Virus record (IMG/VR): IMGVR_UViG_3300048762_000330
Strand: one strand, 5' to 3'
Length of the DNA stretch: 64,000 nt
Origin: a virus
Below the pieces are notes generated by a model that saw only the letters and a list, made by a program, of their open reading frames with translations, was not told where the DNA came from and made no database searches. Every line of letters starts with the position of its first letter. Position 1 is the first letter of the stretch. Both the position numbers and the translations under genes were made by a program. Shown one piece after another: positions 1,580-12,700 of the stretch.

Positions 1580-3331
1580 ATGGCAAAGTCAACCTATGCA
1601 ACTGCATTCGCAACCAAGAAAACTCCACAGACCCAAGCAATTCCGGGTCGTGAAGCGGAAATGAAACAGAATAACGCTGGTGGTGTAACATTCACCATCA
1701 CGCCGGTTCAGATGTTGGAACGTTTCCTGATCCTTGGCAGCAATGCGCCTACGTATTACTCGTCTGCACGCAAACTGACAACAGACAATGCTGACAACAT
1801 CCGTGCGTGTCTGAAGGCCGATGGAAAGCGAACGGTTGACAAAATCGTTGAAATCTCTGTAGCTGGCCGTGCGCCATCGAATGATCCTGCAATTTTCGCT
1901 CTTGCGGTAGCTTCAACACCCGAATTTGGATCTCAAGAAACCGCATTGTATGCTTTATCACAATTAACTAAAGTGTGTCGAATTGGTACCCATTTGTTTC
2001 ATTTTGCTGAATACTTAACCTCAATGAGAGGTTTTGGTCGTGCTGTAAAAAGAGAACTTGGTTTATGGTACACTGACAAGAACGAAGGTCAACTAGCATA
2101 TCAAATTCTTAAATATCAATCAAGAGATGGCTGGAGTCATAAAGATATTTTGTCATTGGCTCATGTAAAAACCTCTGATCCACTTAAATCAGCAGTTTTG
2201 GCTTGGAGTGCAATTGGTGGTCTAGATGCTTTGGCTGAAGCTGAAAAAAATTGGACCAGATCTACAAAAAAGTACAATCTTTCAGAACAAGAAATTAACC
2301 AACGTCGCCATCGTTATGGAAGTGCTTATTCTTTATTGAGTAGTGGTGTTGCGCCAAAGATTATTGTTGGGTACGAGGCAGCTAAAAAAGCAACAACTAC
2401 CAAAGAAATTGTAAAGATTATTCGGGACACTAAACTCAGTCATGAAATGATTCCTACTCAATTTAAAACAGAGCCAGAAGTGTGGATGGCATTGCTAGAA
2501 AATGGGATGCCACTTACCGCAATGGTTCGTAATTTAGGCCAGATGTCGAAAATCGGTCTTTTGAAACCGCTGTCAGATGCATCGAAGTTAGTTGTCTCTC
2601 GCTTGAGTGACCAGCAATTCATTCAGAAGAGCCGTCTACACCCGCTGGCAATCATGCTGGCACAGGGAACCTATCGTCAGGGTCATGGTATGCGTAGTGA
2701 TTCTACATGGGATGTGGTTCCGACTGTTGTTGACGCTTTGGAAGATGCGTTTTACTTGGCGTTCGCAAACGTGATTCCGACTGGCAAAAGTATCTTCATC
2801 GGTCTGGACATTTCAGGTTCGATGAGATGGTCTTACATTGGGGCAACCGGCATTTCAGCGGCGCAAGCCGGTGCTGCAATGGCTTTAGTTATCGCACGTA
2901 CTGAACCAAATTACGCTATCTACGGGTTCAGTACTTCGTTGATTGATTTGGGTATCACAAAGAAGGATACTCTTGAATCAGCAATGAAGAAGACTTCTGA
3001 TCGCAATTTTGGTGGCACCGATTGTGCTCAACCAATGGTCTACGCCGAAAAGAAGGGTTTGACAGTTGATTCTTTTGTTACAATTACAGATTCCGAGACA
3101 TGGGCGGGAAAAATACAGCCGATACAGGCTTTGCAGAGTTACCGCAAGGCACGTGGTAAGAATGATGTGTCTATGATAGTTGTCGGGATGACAAGCACTG
3201 GCTTTAGTATTGCGGACCCTCAAGACCCGTACAATTTGGATGTGGTTGGTTTTGATGCGGCGATACCGTCATTTATATCTGATTTTATTCGTGGCACCAA
3301 TACAGGAATTTCTGAAGATACCGAAGAATAA
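1580..3331 (+). CDS. rsr: Ro60/TROVE-domain RNA-binding protein
   Basis: N-terminal NNAGG-x-x-F, RFLILGS, HEAT-like TROVE region (KYQSRDGWSHKD), C-terminal vWA with MIDAS DISGSM, GGTDCAQPM, TDSETW, VVGFD; GGAG RBS. Confidence 0.95.
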   Translation: MAKSTYATAFATKKTPQTQAIPGREAEMKQNNAGGVTFTITPVQMLERFLILGSNAPTYYSSARKLTTDNADNIRACLKADGKRTVDKIVEISVAGRAPSNDPAIFALAVASTPEFGSQETALYALSQLTKVCRIGTHLFHFAEYLTSMRGFGRAVKRELGLWYTDKNEGQLAYQILKYQSRDGWSHKDILSLAHVKTSDPLKSAVLAWSAIGGLDALAEAEKNWTRSTKKYNLSEQEINQRRHRYGSAYSLLSSGVAPKIIVGYEAAKKATTTKEIVKIIRDTKLSHEMIPTQFKTEPEVWMALLENGMPLTAMVRNLGQMSKIGLLKPLSDASKLVVSRLSDQQFIQKSRLHPLAIMLAQGTYRQGHGMRSDSTWDVVPTVVDALEDAFYLAFANVIPTGKSIFIGLDISGSMRWSYIGATGISAAQAGAAMALVIARTEPNYAIYGFSTSLIDLGITKKDTLESAMKKTSDRNFGGTDCAQPMVYAEKKGLTVDSFVTITDSETWAGKIQPIQALQSYRKARGKNDVSMIVVGMTSTGFSIADPQDPYNLDVVGFDAAIPSFISDFIRGTNTGISEDTEE

Positions 3332-4077
3332 TTTTCTTCACGCCAATCATCAAGGAACTCACAAATATCCAACAATGCGAGTTCTTTGAAACATTCTGTT
3401 CTTCCTCCACTGATACAAGATGGAATGTAACGATAATGTGAAAATTTTTCTATAATATACTGTTCCAAATCGTACAGTTTGTTCAATGCACCATTTAATT
3501 GGAATAAACATGATATAGATAGTTTGTTGTGTCTCCATTTTATTGATCGTTTCGCTATTGATTCTTGTGTTATACCAATTTTAAAAAATGATTCAAAATT
3601 GGAACGAATTAAAATTAAATATAATATTGTGTTTTTATTTTCTCTTGTTTTTCTAACTTCAGGTTGAGAGTAATAACCTCGTGTAACACATTTTGGGCAT
3701 CCGTTTCCGTGCCAATGACCATCTGGTGTTTGTTTGAAGTCACCATGAATTGGACAAGTTATGATGACTTTTGTGGTGCATACAGTATATTTTGATTTGT
3801 CATAATTGTATTTGTTACCATGAATTAATCTACTACGCTGAATGAAAGAATCGGTATTTTTCTTTGTTGGGTGACATAATTTACAGCCCCGACCTCGAAG
3901 ATGTTCACCGGCAATCTGTTGAAAATTTCCATGAATTTTACATGTGATTATTATTGGTAATTTGGCTGTTATATAAAAACTCTTACTGTATTCATATTTG
4001 CTATTATGCACGCTGTTTGCTTTTATAATGAACTCTGTAGTAGTGCGTTTTTTATTTGAATAAATACTTTCAGACAT
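3220..4077 (-). CDS. putative homing endonuclease (repeated H..KY.Y / C..HG.F.Q / GC..C modules + GIY-YIG-like C-terminus)
   Basis: two DUF723-like repeats, then LYLI...FFKIGIT; starts at MSESIY behind a GGAGG RBS; overlaps the Ro60 3' end convergently. Confidence 0.7.
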   Translation of the reverse strand: MSESIYSNKKRTTTEFIIKANSVHNSKYEYSKSFYITAKLPIIITCKIHGNFQQIAGEHLRGRGCKLCHPTKKNTDSFIQRSRLIHGNKYNYDKSKYTVCTTKVIITCPIHGDFKQTPDGHWHGNGCPKCVTRGYYSQPEVRKTRENKNTILYLILIRSNFESFFKIGITQESIAKRSIKWRHNKLSISCLFQLNGALNKLYDLEQYIIEKFSHYRYIPSCISGGRTECFKELALLDICEFLDDWREENYSSVSSEIPVLVPRIKSDINDGIAASKPTTSKLYGS

Positions 4078-4155
4078 GATTTGCTTGCCCTCCAAGCGTT
4101 TGTGTTTAGAGTGAGCGGCGGGTACTGATTATACCTGCCACTCATTCGTATTTAT
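4078..4155 (-). promoter_or_regulatory. late promoter + 5' hairpin leader of the nuclease gene
   Basis: minus strand ATAAATA-N5-GAGTGGCAGGTA(loop)TACCCGCCGCTC-ACTC-TAAACACAA...GGAGG...ATG. Confidence 0.7.
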
Positions 4156-4196: not shown

Positions 4197-4385
4197 ATGA
4201 TCAAAGCAATTGTTAACGTACTGAAGTTCGATGGGACACTTGTTAGTCATAACGAGTTTGTAACTAATCAGGAAGCTGCTGACTTTATGGTTCCCTTTGT
4301 TATAGAGCATCGACAATTCGATATCAATTATCAGCCGATTGGGGCACTTGACAACCTTGATGAGTGTGCTATACTGAAAGAGTAA
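4197..4385 (+). CDS. hypothetical protein
   Basis: ORF just downstream of TTGACA/TATACT and CTAAATA. Confidence 0.5.
   Translation: MIKAIVNVLKFDGTLVSHNEFVTNQEAADFMVPFVIEHRQFDINYQPIGALDNLDECAILKE
4348..4375 (+). promoter_or_regulatory. sigma70-type promoter of the ncRNA operon
   Basis: TTGACA-16nt-TATACT with TG extended -10. Confidence 0.75.
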
Positions 4386-4438: not shown

Positions 4439-4452
4439 GGATCTTTGACAAT
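4439..4452 (+). promoter_or_regulatory. boxA-like antitermination element
   Basis: GGATCTTTGACAAT resembles rrn-leader boxA and lies about 60 nt after the promoter and ahead of structured RNA. Confidence 0.5.
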
Positions 4453-4462
4453 AAAAATTTCA

Positions 4463-4658
4463 TGGTACGAGCCGCTGGCATTAAGGTTACCTACTTGATG
4501 AAGACCCGGTGAGAAGTTGAAACACCAAATCCGGGAATATTAGCAGTTAGTAACAAGTGCTCCGCAAGGAGTGTAGTAAACAATGCAATGCAAGGGAATG
4601 AAATGCCCAATTTGGAGGCAAGTAATTCCCGGCCTTGAGCTACAATTTGCTCGTACCA
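4463..4658 (+). ncRNA. Y RNA-like RNA 1 (long, with inserted multi-helix domain)
   Basis: 5' TGGTACGAGC pairs with 3' GCTCGTACCA; GAGC-C-G / TTTGCTC bulged helix; GGTTACCT motif; internal CCGGGAAT/ATTCCCGG helix and GCAA tetraloop hairpin. Confidence 0.7.
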
Positions 4659-4662
4659 AATA

Positions 4663-5050
4663 TTCATGTAGAGCTAAAGCTCCATGATCGAGTTCTTCTC
4701 GTCATTAAACCATGAGAAGACGTTCCTGAACTTAACGCATGAAGGAGGCTACTTTGATGCATAGTGGCAAGCGTGACTGTGAAGCAACCGCCGACGATGC
4801 AGAAGGCTATCGCTTCCAATACAGACCTTCTTGTCTACGATAAAGTTCAGCAGTAATTCGCCTGTAAAGCGGGGTCATTTGGTGATGGACGTTAACTAGC
4901 ACTGGTCATTATGGATTAAGACCTTAAATTAATCCTGGTCGCAAGGATCGACAGAAAAATATCCAGTCATTGCCGGTTGCGGCCTTAAATCGGATAGCCT
5001 TGGTGGTGGGCGATATCATCACCCGATTTTTGAATCTCCTTGCGGGAGTT
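4663..5050 (+). ncRNA. unassigned structured RNA domain A
   Basis: no credible ORF; stems TCATG/CATGA, CTTCTC/GAGAAG, CTGAACTT(4726)/AAGTTCAG(4843), GGATTAA/TTAATCC. Confidence 0.5.
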
Positions 5051-5057
5051 GTATTTG

Positions 5058-5119
5058 ACTGAGCCGAAAGTAAGGGTTACCTTCTCATAAAAAGTCTCCT
5101 TACAAAATATTTGCTCAGT
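5058..5119 (+). ncRNA. Y RNA-like RNA 2
   Basis: ACTGAGC/GCTCAGT terminal stem; GAGCCGAAAG...GGGTTACCT...AATATTTGCTC. Confidence 0.7.
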
Positions 5120-5126
5120 ATTTGAG

Positions 5127-5224
5127 TTTTGGATCGAGCCGAAAGGGTAGGGTTATCTCATACCATTTTAATTGAATGCCAGGAAACTGGCTAGCTCCTT
5201 CTCGAATATTTGCTCGTTCCAAAA
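5127..5224 (+). ncRNA. Y RNA-like RNA 3
   Basis: TTTTGGATCGAGC/GCTCGTTCCAAAA stem; GAGCCGAAAGGGTAGGGTTATCTCA; GCCAG-GAAA-CTGGC hairpin; pyrimidine tract; AATATTTGCTC. Confidence 0.75.
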
Positions 5225-5590
5225 ATTTCTGTATTGGCAGAAACGCAGTTTCGCTGTTGTGCGAAAAATAGAACAGCGTGGCGGTGGGTAGAACCGGATG
5301 GCACAATGTGCTCTAAGGCGACTCTCCTGTGACCAGTACACATAAAAGCTGGTGGGAGACCGGGTAGGATAGAACCTATCGGCCTTTTGGGAGAGAAATC
5401 TCCCTAAAGTTTAGTGGTACGTGGCAGCAGATTAATGGAATCGTTGGGATGACGCTGCTTGAGTCATATGTTGAGTAGTGATACTTCAGCATACTTTAGT
5501 GTTGTATATGACGGCGGTATGTAGTATGACATAGGATCTTGAAAATCCTGCTGACGATTCAACCACTTGAGTTTGCCGAAAGGCAAAAAT
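5225..5590 (+). ncRNA. unassigned structured RNA domain B
   Basis: GGGAGA-GAAA-TCTCCC, TTTGCC-GAAA-GGCAAA, GAATCGTT/GACGATTC long-range helix, AGGAT-CTTGAAA-ATCCT anticodon-arm-like hairpin. Confidence 0.5.
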
Positions 5591-9036: not shown

Positions 9037-9050
9037 GGGTTTTGAATGAT

Positions 9051-9115
9051 GATCGAGCCGGAAGATTTGGGTTATCTTATAAAAATCAAACCTATGTCAA
9101 ACAATTTGTTCGGTC
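9051..9115 (+). ncRNA. Y RNA-like RNA 4
   Basis: GATCGAGC/GTTCGGTC stem with G-U covariation; GAGCCGGAAG...GGGTTATCT...ACAATTTGTTC. Confidence 0.7.
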
Positions 9116-9128
9116 TAAATATAGAATT

Positions 9129-9474: not shown

Positions 9475-9550
9475 GGCTGGTAAGCTAATCTAGTGAAAGT
9501 ATCGGTCTGAAAAACCGAGGAGTTGAGAGCGTAACTCAAACCAGCCACCA
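9475..9550 (+). tRNA. tRNA-Phe(GAA), non-canonical T-loop
   Basis: GGCTGGT/ACCAGCC + ACCA; TCGGT-CTGAAAA-ACCGA; T-arm TTGAG-AGCGTAA-CTCAA. Confidence 0.85.
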
Positions 9551-9553
9551 TAT

Positions 9554-9631
9554 AGGGGACGAGTGTTACATAGACAGCATTACAGCCTCCAAAGCTGATA
9601 GGTCGGGCCGCAAGAGTCCGGTCCCCTGCCA
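9554..9631 (+). tRNA. tRNA-Trp(CCA), non-canonical T-loop
   Basis: AGGGGAC/GTCCCCT + GCCA; CAGC-CTCCAAA-GCTG; T-arm CGGGC-CGCAAGA-GTCCG. Confidence 0.8.
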
Positions 9632-9654
9632 TTTTATTAAGTATAAATACTTGC

Positions 9655-10236
9655 ATGGAAAATGCAAATTTCATAATATCCACTCAATACGACGGAAAAC
9701 CTCGTAAACTTTACCGCCATCTGTGTTTGATATGTGATGTGGAATTTTGGGTTCCACGTCATAAAAAAAAGTTATGCTGCTCGCTTACCTGTCGTGGAAA
9801 AGCTAAAACAAAAAATCAAACTGTAATTCTTATTTGTACAAGATGCGGAATTGAATTTCACAAACGACAAAGCAGTTTAGTTAACAGCAAACATCAAAAA
9901 TTTTTTTGTTCAAGAAAATGTAAAGATTTAGCTCAAAGATTAGATGGTGATTGTCCAGAGATCAGACCTTCGCATTACGGAACCGGAACTGGGATTCATG
10001 GATATCGTTTAATAATGGCAAAAGAAATTAAAGATGGATGCATTGATTGTCATGAAACACAATCATATTTTTTGGAAGTTCATCATATAGATGGAAATCG
10101 AAACAATAACGCAAAATCTAATTTGGAGGTTGTTTGCGTGAAAGATCATCGTCGCCGTCATTTACAATTTATAAAGGACACATGGAATTTTAGTTCCCAT
10201 GTGTTAACACCCCGTGAAAATCTGGCTGAAGTTTGA
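9655..10236 (+). CDS. HNH endonuclease with N-terminal zinc-ribbon repeats
   Basis: CxxC...CSxxC repeats; C-terminal CIDC...LEVHHIDGNRNNN...NLEVVC..DH. Confidence 0.85.
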   Translation: MENANFIISTQYDGKPRKLYRHLCLICDVEFWVPRHKKKLCCSLTCRGKAKTKNQTVILICTRCGIEFHKRQSSLVNSKHQKFFCSRKCKDLAQRLDGDCPEIRPSHYGTGTGIHGYRLIMAKEIKDGCIDCHETQSYFLEVHHIDGNRNNNAKSNLEVVCVKDHRRRHLQFIKDTWNFSSHVLTPRENLAEV

Positions 10237-10268: not shown

Positions 10269-10808
10269 ATGAAACTCAGAACTGGATTTGTAAGCAACTC
10301 TTCAAGCAGCAGCTTTATTGTCGCATTCTCCGTCCTTCCAAAGACGAAAGAAGAACTTCAAGCTATGCTTTTCGGAGACGAAAAAGTTTATCCTAATCCG
10401 TACATTTTTAATGCCAATGATACGTATGGCTGGACTGCCGAAGAAGTTACCGCAACTGTATGGGCCGATTTGTTTTCCTCAACCAATTCAAAAAGAACCG
10501 GCGTCATTTCCCGTGAAGAAGCCATTGAAGTGGGAATATCTGGTTACCTAGAAGGTGCAGAACGCCCGGAGATGCCGTCTTTCAATCGCAATCGCTCCGA
10601 TAAAGAACGGGCAAAAGATTGGGACGAATATCAAGAACAATGGAATCGTGCCAACGGGAAAGTCATGGAAGCTTTTCTCGCTAGAGTTCCAGAAGGACAC
10701 ATTCTGACTCATTTTGAGTACTGCGACAATGATGGTGATTACTTTCAAGCCTTGGAGCATGGTCCGTTGTTTCGAAATCTCCAAAGTCTTCGTGTCAGCC
10801 ACCACTAG
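10269..10808 (+). CDS. MKLRxGFVSNSSSSSF-motif protein (paralog 1)
   Basis: N-terminal motif shared with four genes at 59.2-61.6 kb. Confidence 0.75.
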   Translation: MKLRTGFVSNSSSSSFIVAFSVLPKTKEELQAMLFGDEKVYPNPYIFNANDTYGWTAEEVTATVWADLFSSTNSKRTGVISREEAIEVGISGYLEGAERPEMPSFNRNRSDKERAKDWDEYQEQWNRANGKVMEAFLARVPEGHILTHFEYCDNDGDYFQALEHGPLFRNLQSLRVSHH

Positions 10809-10827
10809 AAATGTGTTATACTTAGGT

Positions 10828-11079
10828 ATGAGCCATAGACTTGAAGTAACCTACAAAGGAAGTTTTGATACTGAAAAAGACGCCGCTATCGAAAAAGTCA
10901 TCGGCAAGCAATCCGGTGCCAGTGGTTATGGATTTGGTGAGCGGGATTTGGCCTTCTACTTCGACAAATCAAAAAAGGGAAAGACCACAAAGCAATGCGC
11001 CGATGAAGCTCTCGCCAAATTGAAGAGCGCTAAAATTCATGGTGTGAAAGGTGAAGTGGTCGAAGATAAAAAAGAATGA
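10828..11079 (+). CDS. hypothetical protein
   Basis: AGG RBS; coupled to the next gene. Confidence 0.55.
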   Translation: MSHRLEVTYKGSFDTEKDAAIEKVIGKQSGASGYGFGERDLAFYFDKSKKGKTTKQCADEALAKLKSAKIHGVKGEVVEDKKE

Positions 11080-11312: not shown

Positions 11313-11464
11313 CGCTGATTAACTGTTGGCGTATCACTTTCGTATTATTCCTGCTAGGCGTGCTCTTTTCCTGGATGCAATGCAAAGCCATTGCCAACAT
11401 ATTCAGCGACATTGGTGGCATAGCTTTCATACTATATCATGGGTTGGTGGAGATGAATGCCTAA
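11309..11464 (+). CDS. small membrane protein, tandem paralog of the preceding gene
   Basis: [19 protein letters not shown] matches NCWRITFILLLIGAFFSCM; not in the ORF track (51 aa). Confidence 0.5.
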
Positions 11465-11794: not shown

Positions 11795-12700
11795 ATGGGT
11801 CAACAAGAAATGTATTGGTCTCTTCTGGCATTATCAGTTGGTGATGCAAGCGGCGAAAATGAATTGAAGATCCTGCCGCAATCAGAGTACAAAGCTGGTA
11901 ATGTTGCGGCCACACGAGATGGGTCAATTCTTTGGCCCTGGACCGACGACACCGCAATGGCTATAGGAGTCTTCAGGACGCTTTCCCGCTACGGAACCAT
12001 CAATCAGGTCGAGCTTACCAAAGAATTCGCACGTAACGCCAAGCTAGACCCACAGCGTGGTTATGGCAAAGGCACCGCCCGGTTGCTTTTCAATTATCTC
12101 TACGATGCAGAGAATTGGAGAGAACTCAGCGAACATGCATGGGGTCTAACTCCAATGTCAGGTTCTAAAGGCAATGGCAGCGCAATGCGTGATGTCATCA
12201 TCGGGCCGTATTTTGATCGAGATTTTCACCGCATCGCAAATGAAGCACGTCGTTCTGCTGAAGTAACGCATTTCCATTTAGAGTCAATTCATGGTTCTAT
12301 CGCTGTGGCCGTCGCCGCCGCTGTTGCGACATTCGAAGCACATCCTGAAAAATGGTTCTGGTCAGAACTCAACATGCATGTACCGGATGGCGAAATAAAA
12401 ACTCGCATTCAAACCGTCGCTAAAATGGGAAATGAAACCAATTGGAAAGTGGTTGGTGCCGTAGGAAACGGAAGTTCGGTCCTGGCAGTCGATACCGTTC
12501 CATTTGCTTTATGGCTGTCTCATCAAGTACTGACAAAAGGGATGAACTTTGAACAAGCCATGAAGAGTATTATTGAAGTTGGCGGCGACACCGATACTGT
12601 AGCCGCAATGGTAGGCGGAATCATTGGCAACAAAGTTCATCCTACACAGGAAATGATTGACCGGACTGAACCACTTCCAGCAGACATTTGTAAGGAATAA
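11795..12700 (+). CDS. ADP-ribosylglycohydrolase family protein
   Basis: SVGDA, WTDDT, GNGSAMR and GGDTDT..AM.G motifs. Confidence 0.9.
   Translation: MGQQEMYWSLLALSVGDASGENELKILPQSEYKAGNVAATRDGSILWPWTDDTAMAIGVFRTLSRYGTINQVELTKEFARNAKLDPQRGYGKGTARLLFNYLYDAENWRELSEHAWGLTPMSGSKGNGSAMRDVIIGPYFDRDFHRIANEARRSAEVTHFHLESIHGSIAVAVAAAVATFEAHPEKWFWSELNMHVPDGEIKTRIQTVAKMGNETNWKVVGAVGNGSSVLAVDTVPFALWLSHQVLTKGMNFEQAMKSIIEVGGDTDTVAAMVGGIIGNKVHPTQEMIDRTEPLPADICKE

Follow-up and report, generated by a model that had tools for sequence, protein, structure and literature searches.

What kind of RNA lies beside the Ro60 gene of this phage, and what might its large body do? Y RNAs are thought to give Ro60 specificity by way of a second module. 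To our knowledge, descriptions from bacteria and phages have so far been limited to tRNA-like modules (YrlA) and small loops. A sequence-only reading of the 64,000-nt stretch of viral DNA analyzed here (the window) had described an RNA that joins the Ro-type stem of shorter neighboring copies to a multi-helix loop domain without tRNA-like features. We favor the view, with a probability of roughly 60%, that this RNA is a partner of the phage Ro60, with a handle held by the protein and a non-tRNA body that acts as an effector module. Table 1 lists the relevant features.

Locus and handle of the RNA

With ~42% G+C and with genes for tRNAs, homing endonucleases, a CCA-adding enzyme, and a ClpX-like ATPase, the window looks like a piece of a large (jumbo) phage genome. 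A blastn comparison of the non-coding stretch with a phage genome collection gave no match. The product of the presumed partner gene aligns over nearly its full length with Deinococcus radiodurans Rsr (PDB 2nvo, 1.7e-108) and Xenopus Ro60 (1yvp, 6e-92), and its sequence identifies it as a genuine full-length Ro60. The long RNA unit lies 1.1 kb downstream of this gene on the same strand, an arrangement that is repeated in nine relatives. There is no credible open frame between ~4386 and 5950, and a coding reading of the long unit was ruled out because no open frame in it is conserved. The predicted promoter, a strong one, is 88 nt upstream of the long unit, and a TTGACA...TAGACT sequence occupies the equivalent position ahead of the array in two relatives (L001 and L083).

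Three further elements of this region may be noted. A leader sequence at 4442-4455, GGATCTTTGACAAT, resembles the rrn boxA antitermination element, and a similar sequence, CGATCTTTGAC, is found in the L001 leader. A terminator-like hairpin with a T run (5002-5033) separates the long-unit part of the array from the short units, and the 1.5-kb stretch may therefore comprise more than one transcription unit. Between the Ro60 gene and the RNA array there is a T5orf172/endonuclease-type gene on the minus strand (3220-4095); since relatives have small plus-strand genes there, it looks like a homing-endonuclease insertion.

Table 1. Positions of the Ro60 gene, the promoter, and the predicted elements of the long RNA in the window.
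Feature	Position	Strand	Evidence
Ro60 gene (TROVE + vWA), presumed protein partner	1580..3331	+	Pfam TROVE 1.5e-36, vWA_Ro60 9.2e-56
Predicted sigma-70-type promoter, TTGACA-16-TATACT with TG extension	4348..4375	+	11/12 consensus matches
Whole long Y-type RNA, 196 nt	4463..4658	+	terminal repeat, handle motifs; covariance model R1, 173.8 bits
P1, 5' strand of terminal stem (pairs with 4649-4658)	4463..4472	+	10/10 pairs
Bulged C then G (GAGC-C-G), presumed Ro60 contact	4473..4474	+	both invariant in 37/37 units
P2, 5' strand UGGC (pairs with 4639-4642)	4476..4479	+	centroid fold
P2b, 5' strand UAAGGUU (pairs with 4631-4637), closes body	4482..4488	+	7/7 canonical in nine long units
J1 joiner ACCUACUUGAUGAAGA	4489..4504	+	motif UUAYCU...AAUUGRUGAA, common to ~90-nt Y units
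P3 hairpin, CCCGG, 21-nt loop, CCGGG	4505..4535	+	hairpin at matching place in nine long units
GCAGUUA, first GYAGU(A/U) copy	4543..4549	+	
P4 hairpin, GUGCUCC-GCAA-GGAGUGU	4557..4574	+	present in every fold prediction
GUAGUAA, second GYAGU(A/U) copy	4573..4579	+	
P5 two-tier hairpin, GGGAAU/AUUCCC outer, UGCC/GGCA inner, GAAA/AGUA internal loop	4594..4630	+	
P2b, 3' strand GGCCUUG	4631..4637	+	7/7 canonical in nine long units
P2, 3' strand GCUA	4639..4642	+	centroid fold
AUUU then P1 3' strand GCUCGUACCA	4645..4658	+	AUUU ahead of stem in 36/37 units

The ends of the long unit form an exact 10-bp inverted repeat (4463-4472/4649-4658), in agreement with the Ro-type stem of the sequence-only reading. 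A single repeat of this length is not rare by itself, as ~0.5 are expected by chance in 1.6 kb by our estimate. Its significance comes from the motifs that it has in common with short units, from the existence of nine homologous long units, and from compensatory changes in the stem, such as U-A to C-G exchanges at pair 4. Three shorter Y-type units in the window (5058-5119, 5130-5221, and 9049-9117, with approximate ends) have the same 5' GAGCCG...RGGTTAYC and 3' ATTTGYTCG motifs. Related loci were gathered through the Ro60 protein and pattern scans, and a script then picked 37 non-redundant handle units from the window and about 11-12 related contigs. Across these units, the outer pairs 3-6 of P1 take two to five pair types and pairs 7-10 are nearly invariant; four of nine pairs change on both sides in the covariance-model alignment.

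The published Ro60-binding motif is GNCGAA(N)G in bacteria and GGUCCGA with a bulged C in animals (PMC4201824). The GAGC-C-G strand of the handle resembles both. The short units carry GCCGAAAG, which fits the published motif, whereas the long unit has GCCGCUGG, in which the AA is missing. Because GCCGCU thus stands in place of GNCGAA, Ro60 binding by the long unit is not assured, and this is the main reason for doubt. On its 3' side the handle has an AUUUG-GYUC core, and the AUUU that precedes the stem almost universally was no part of the search rule that defined the 37 units. We assign the RNA to the plus strand because stem position 9 is G.U in 26 of 37 units, which read from the opposite strand would give C.A, and because the promoter and the Ro60 gene have plus-strand orientation too; folding energy is no better for this strand (z = -3.0) than for the opposite one (z = -3.4). 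On these sequence features, the RNA is a Y-type RNA with the handle of the short units.

Among the loci examined, the handle core is found only beside Ro60 genes. A scan of viral contigs with the 5' pattern returned no phage beyond the one already included, and the metagenome pattern scan gave three true loci among nine. With the 3' pattern, all 74 matches in reference genomes are due to chance, none having a 5' handle, and viral contigs yielded no matches. One related locus (L060:5349-6511) has six handle units in a row that range from 69 to 209 nt and carry a GGGCCG handle variant.

Structure and conservation of the body

Several sequence searches show no tRNA mimicry in the ~140-nt body within this stem. 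It contains no TTCRA T-loop and no GG D-loop, as had been noted at the outset, and ARAGORN finds no tRNA in the long unit. The Rfam models for tRNA, YrlA (RF02553), and Y_RNA (RF00019) give no match to it at E <= 10 in 3.5-kb and 241-nt searches, and neither does Y_RNA in a 1.6-kb search; nothing relevant to the long unit passes the Rfam gathering threshold. The same approach does detect sister units in relatives. A 136-nt unit (L084:12334-12469) matches YrlA from end to end (12341-12466, 22.7 bits), and a unit in L098 (10729-10902) encloses a tRNA-like domain (10804-10875, Rfam tRNA 38.7 bits). The covariance search, which according to the sequence-only reading could have refuted its proposal, thus does not assign the long unit to YrlA. 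The YrlA domain order of T-arm, stem-loop, and D-arm (PMC4201824) also recurs in more distant Ro60 phages, and the YrlA-like or tRNA-enclosing units of these phages and the relatives further include L025:6791-6924, L042:5452-5590, L064:6844-6973, L081:9198-9330, and L060:5349-6511. The three shorter units in the window are not tRNA-like either, so no YrlA-type unit is seen in the 64-kb window, though relatives have one.

The fold that we propose for the body differs in part from the one first drawn. A folded multi-helix domain appears real, and its GTGCTCC-GCAA-GGAGTGT (4557-4574) and TGCC/GGCA (4604-4607/4617-4620) hairpin elements are present as described, but the long-range helix between CCGGGAAT and ATTCCCGG (4531-4538/4625-4632) is not conserved. 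These segments are complementary at eight of eight positions in the window and at only five to six of eight in relatives. The helix competes with three conserved helices, and its arms belong in relatives to P3 and to P5 with the closing helix. A compensatory change in L085 and L089 keeps P3 while breaking the long-range pairing, and in relatives with GGGA-type P5 strands (L096, L082, and L097) the best partner of the ATTCCCGG arm is a strand that contains GGGA.

The 7-bp helix P2b closes the body. Its outer pair is U.G, A-U, or G-C across relatives, and its other changes are one-sided. One-sided changes also preserve pairing in P2, as judged by reading the sequences. The P2 register is ambiguous, and RNAalifold prefers to pair GGC with GCC at 4632-4634. 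This automatic-consensus helix competes with P2b. We prefer the latter, on a script count of its pairs, as these are canonical throughout the nine long units, the divergent group included. A second automatic-consensus element, an AGGU/ACUU hairpin, was rejected with only 73% of its positions paired.

The P3 hairpin has eight different stem sequences in the nine long units. Both sides change at four of its five pairs, and 81.5% of cells are paired. Shuffle tests on single sequences are weak (p = 0.007 to 0.24), with no P3 hairpin significant on its own, and combining six lineages by Fisher's method gives p ~ 0.003. P4 recurs unchanged in L096; L082, L085, and L089 have unrelated hairpins in its place, and it is missing from L097. 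In L096 the outer tier of P5 has C-G in place of U-A, and each relative has its own, different helix as the inner tier. The GGGA/UCCC core of P5 never varies and is therefore uninformative, lending no covariation support. The GAAA/AGUA internal loop of P5 also occurs in L082 and is not found in L096 or L097. This pair of strands is typical of loop E or sarcin-ricin (S-turn) motifs.

A covariance model (R1) was built from six long units. Standard pairs fill 90.3% of the cells in its alignment, a value attained by none of 500 shuffles, in which the share is 78.4%; with slid partners it is 34-44%. These figures lean towards the structure, since the model also guided the alignment. When the P3 and P5 pieces were aligned by sequence only with MAFFT, the 3' strands were misplaced and RNAalifold predicted no pairs; the anchored comparison and the covariance-model alignment were used instead.

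The body also contains GYAGU(A/U) repeats. Across the nine bodies, GCAGT occurs 20 times in eight (1.2 expected) and AGTAA 17 times (2.0 expected), counts that are inflated by the relatedness of the units. The 7-mer GYAGTWR, present twice in the 196-nt unit, has a frequency of about one per 2,300 nt of each strand in the window as a whole. Units that carry the GYAGU motif have from two copies (the window) to six (L097), and the L084 long unit has none. The varying number and position of the repeats argue for selection on the motif. Base-pair probabilities give no support to the idea that the repeats are specifically single-stranded, with a predicted unpaired probability of 0.48 for GYAGU versus 0.45 for the rest of the body.

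Nine non-redundant long units are known to us, in the window, L096, L082, L097, L085, L089, L098, L001, and L084; L090 is a near copy of L089 and is not counted separately. All nine come first in their arrays, behind the promoter and leader. They score 30-181 bits against R1 compared to 10-27 bits for other handle units, and R1 searches found no second long copy in the window and no further one over 21 loci. Sequence identity of the body to that of the window is 0.74 in L096, 0.69 in L097, and 0.63 in L082, all above every shuffle; it is marginal in L085 and L089 (0.59) and at shuffle level in L098, L001, and L084 (three of eight). These last three share P3, two of them have the repeats, and their 3' halves are different. 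The arrays of L083 and L101 have no long unit, and the long unit of L100 has a different body. Conservation of the body, which the sequence-only reading had made a test of its proposal, thus holds for the architecture within a small clade, with covariation in P3 and the closing helix, but the sequence is not kept far. It is recognizable only in the closest three to five relatives, and three related contigs are without this type. The 92-nt unit of the window (5130-5221) has J1 and one GAAA-capped hairpin, and it looks as if the long unit arose by expansion from such ~90-nt non-tRNA units.

Possible roles of the RNA

Under the favored reading, the RNA would be transcribed from the predicted promoter as the first gene of a non-coding RNA array and then excised. 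Its 5' and 3' ends would pair into a long stalk composed of P1, the bulged C, P2, and P2b. Ro60 is expected to hold the GAGC-C-G/AUUUG-GYUC handle on this stalk, which would present the body with J1, P3, P4, P5, and the GYAGU(A/U) repeats. Other Y RNAs suggest, by analogy, that the body is an effector module. Its most likely task would be to bring a host or phage protein that binds single-stranded RNA to Ro60, and the KH/S1 domains of PNPase or another exoribonuclease are one example of what it could engage. The body might also gate access to the Ro60 ring.

The precedent for tethering comes from other systems. Y RNAs are modular, with a second module that binds effectors, and D. radiodurans Yrn1 contacts the KH/S1 domains of PNPase (10.1101/312249). 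The Ro60 and Yrl RNAs of phage phiLo form a ternary complex with host PNPase (PMC12135203). It is by analogy with these RNAs that Ro60 may be tethered to a partner here (10.1101/312249; PMC12135203). A more far-reaching version, which we offer only tentatively, holds that jumbo-phage Ro60 is a universal holder of interchangeable RNA bodies, and that the long body that comes first in the array is a new effector module, with iterated GYAGU(A/U) sites and GAAA/AGUA-type loops serving to trap one particular host enzyme of RNA processing. If so, then this enzyme, perhaps an exoribonuclease or a defence endoribonuclease, might be redirected or neutralized during infection.

An unlikely but serious alternative is that Ro60 binds the RNA and the body recruits nothing. 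The body could then be a gate or stabilizer, a gating role for Y RNAs having been discussed (10.1101/312249), or the whole could be a Ro60-protected decoy sponge in which GYAGU titrates a host RNA-binding protein or endoribonuclease. A motif that is kept while its copies vary from two to six between relatives is what titration predicts, yet the L084 long unit lacks it entirely and a simple sponge leaves the conserved P3 and P5 hairpins unexplained. Moreover, we know of no protein that reads GYAGU. The neighbors of the locus (tRNAs, a CCA-adding enzyme, and an ADP-ribosylglycohydrolase, with Macro and PTH2 genes in relatives) place it among tRNA-rescue and anti-defence-type genes, a setting that would suit a sponge or a gate.

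It is quite improbable that the RNA is not a Ro60 ligand and that its stem is a processing stalk, as in rRNA operons, from which the body is released as a separate structured RNA. The position of the unit at the head of a polycistronic array that follows a promoter and a boxA-like leader would be compatible with such a stalk, as would the departure of the long-unit handle from GNCGAA, but the invariant GAGC-C-G and AUUUG-GYUC core is also present in short units that have almost no body to release, and it occurs only beside Ro60 genes in the examined loci. That the body is a YrlA whose tRNA-like module has drifted past recognition is hardly credible, even with YrlA-like and tRNA-enclosing sister units in L084 and L098 and a T-arm-like hairpin followed by ACUCCA in the distant L100 long unit, because it has no T-loop or D-loop, matches neither the YrlA nor the tRNA model at E <= 10 in the 241-nt search, and has J1 and one hairpin in common with the ~90-nt non-tRNA units, an indication that the long body arose as that class expanded.

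Relation to known Y RNAs and to other RNAs nearby

Y RNAs that are not tRNA-like are already known, and they include YrlB, Yrn2, and animal Y RNAs (PMC4201824). The Ro60 partner proposed here is similar to YrlB of Salmonella Typhimurium and Mycobacterium smegmatis and to Yrn2 of D. radiodurans in that it is located beside Ro60 on the same strand and has ends that pair into a stem carrying what looks like a GNCG-type motif (Chen et al. 2014, PMC4201824). Like them, it has no tRNA-like domain and coexists with other Y RNAs in one locus (PMC4201824), but it differs in its ~140-nt multi-helix body, its GYAGU repeats, and its jumbo-phage origin. With YrlA (RF02553) and Yrn1 it has in common a modular organization, here of a presumed Ro60-binding stem and a putative effector module. 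Phage-encoded examples of YrlA are known, and YrlA-like sister units occur in the arrays of relatives, but the long unit is without the defining T-arm, D-arm, and covariance-model match.

The closest parallel in arrangement is Thermus phage phiLo, in which Yrl1 and Yrl2 are phage-encoded Y-like RNAs that adjoin a phage Ro60 gene (PMC12135203). The phiLo Yrl RNAs bridge to host PNPase in vitro and are the model for the mechanism proposed here (PMC12135203). Compared by arrangement and description, the two phiLo RNAs are small, have a stem-bulge-stem form, and lie upstream of the gene, whereas the window has an array of at least four units downstream of it, one of which has a large body.

In animal Y RNAs (RF00019) the terminal stem likewise has a bulged C and a 5' strand of G-C-C-G type, but the body of the long unit is much larger, and the unit has no match to the Rfam Y_RNA model at E <= 10. 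Loop-proximal GGGUUAUCUUUCAAUUGGUGAA sequences in units such as L084:12558-12654, L101:3792-3882, and L098:11557-11643 presumably resemble GAGUUAUCUCAAUUGAUUG and GGGUUAUC of human Y1, Y4, and Y5. Loop-proximal GGGUUAUC and AAUUGRUGA-like motifs would also be similar to these human RNAs, a likeness that we take to be only a lead. A deep relation between phage and animal Y RNAs that extends beyond the Ro60 site is possible; the Rfam Y_RNA model detects no such relation.

A large multi-helix body with iterated GYAGU on a Y handle appears to match no Rfam family and no Y RNA described in the literature cited here. With a conserved 140-nt non-tRNA body beside shorter units that carry other bodies on one handle, the locus provides a natural comparison set for the tethering model, and a comparison of these bodies could reveal the purpose that Ro60 serves in phages. 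Its value is limited by the narrow distribution, the uncultured source, and a function that is inferred by analogy only.

Other RNAs are present in this region and in the relatives. A block of conserved non-coding sequence within the array (~5240-5400) reads GTGGCGGT.GGT ... CTGTGA.CAGTACACA.TAAAAGCTGGTGGG; it matches no Rfam family and recurs in L001 (~9480-9660) and L083 (~10990-11060). A tRNA-shaped RNA at 9475-9547 scores 42.8 bits against the Rfam tRNA model and is not detected by ARAGORN; its T-loop, GAGCGTAAC, is unusual. The RNA is kept in L001 (10700-10772) and L083 (~11362-11435), and its acceptor, anticodon, and T stems show compensatory changes. The tRNA region of one relative (L084:14773-14814) contains a match to the Rfam abiF RNA that is above threshold (45.2 bits).
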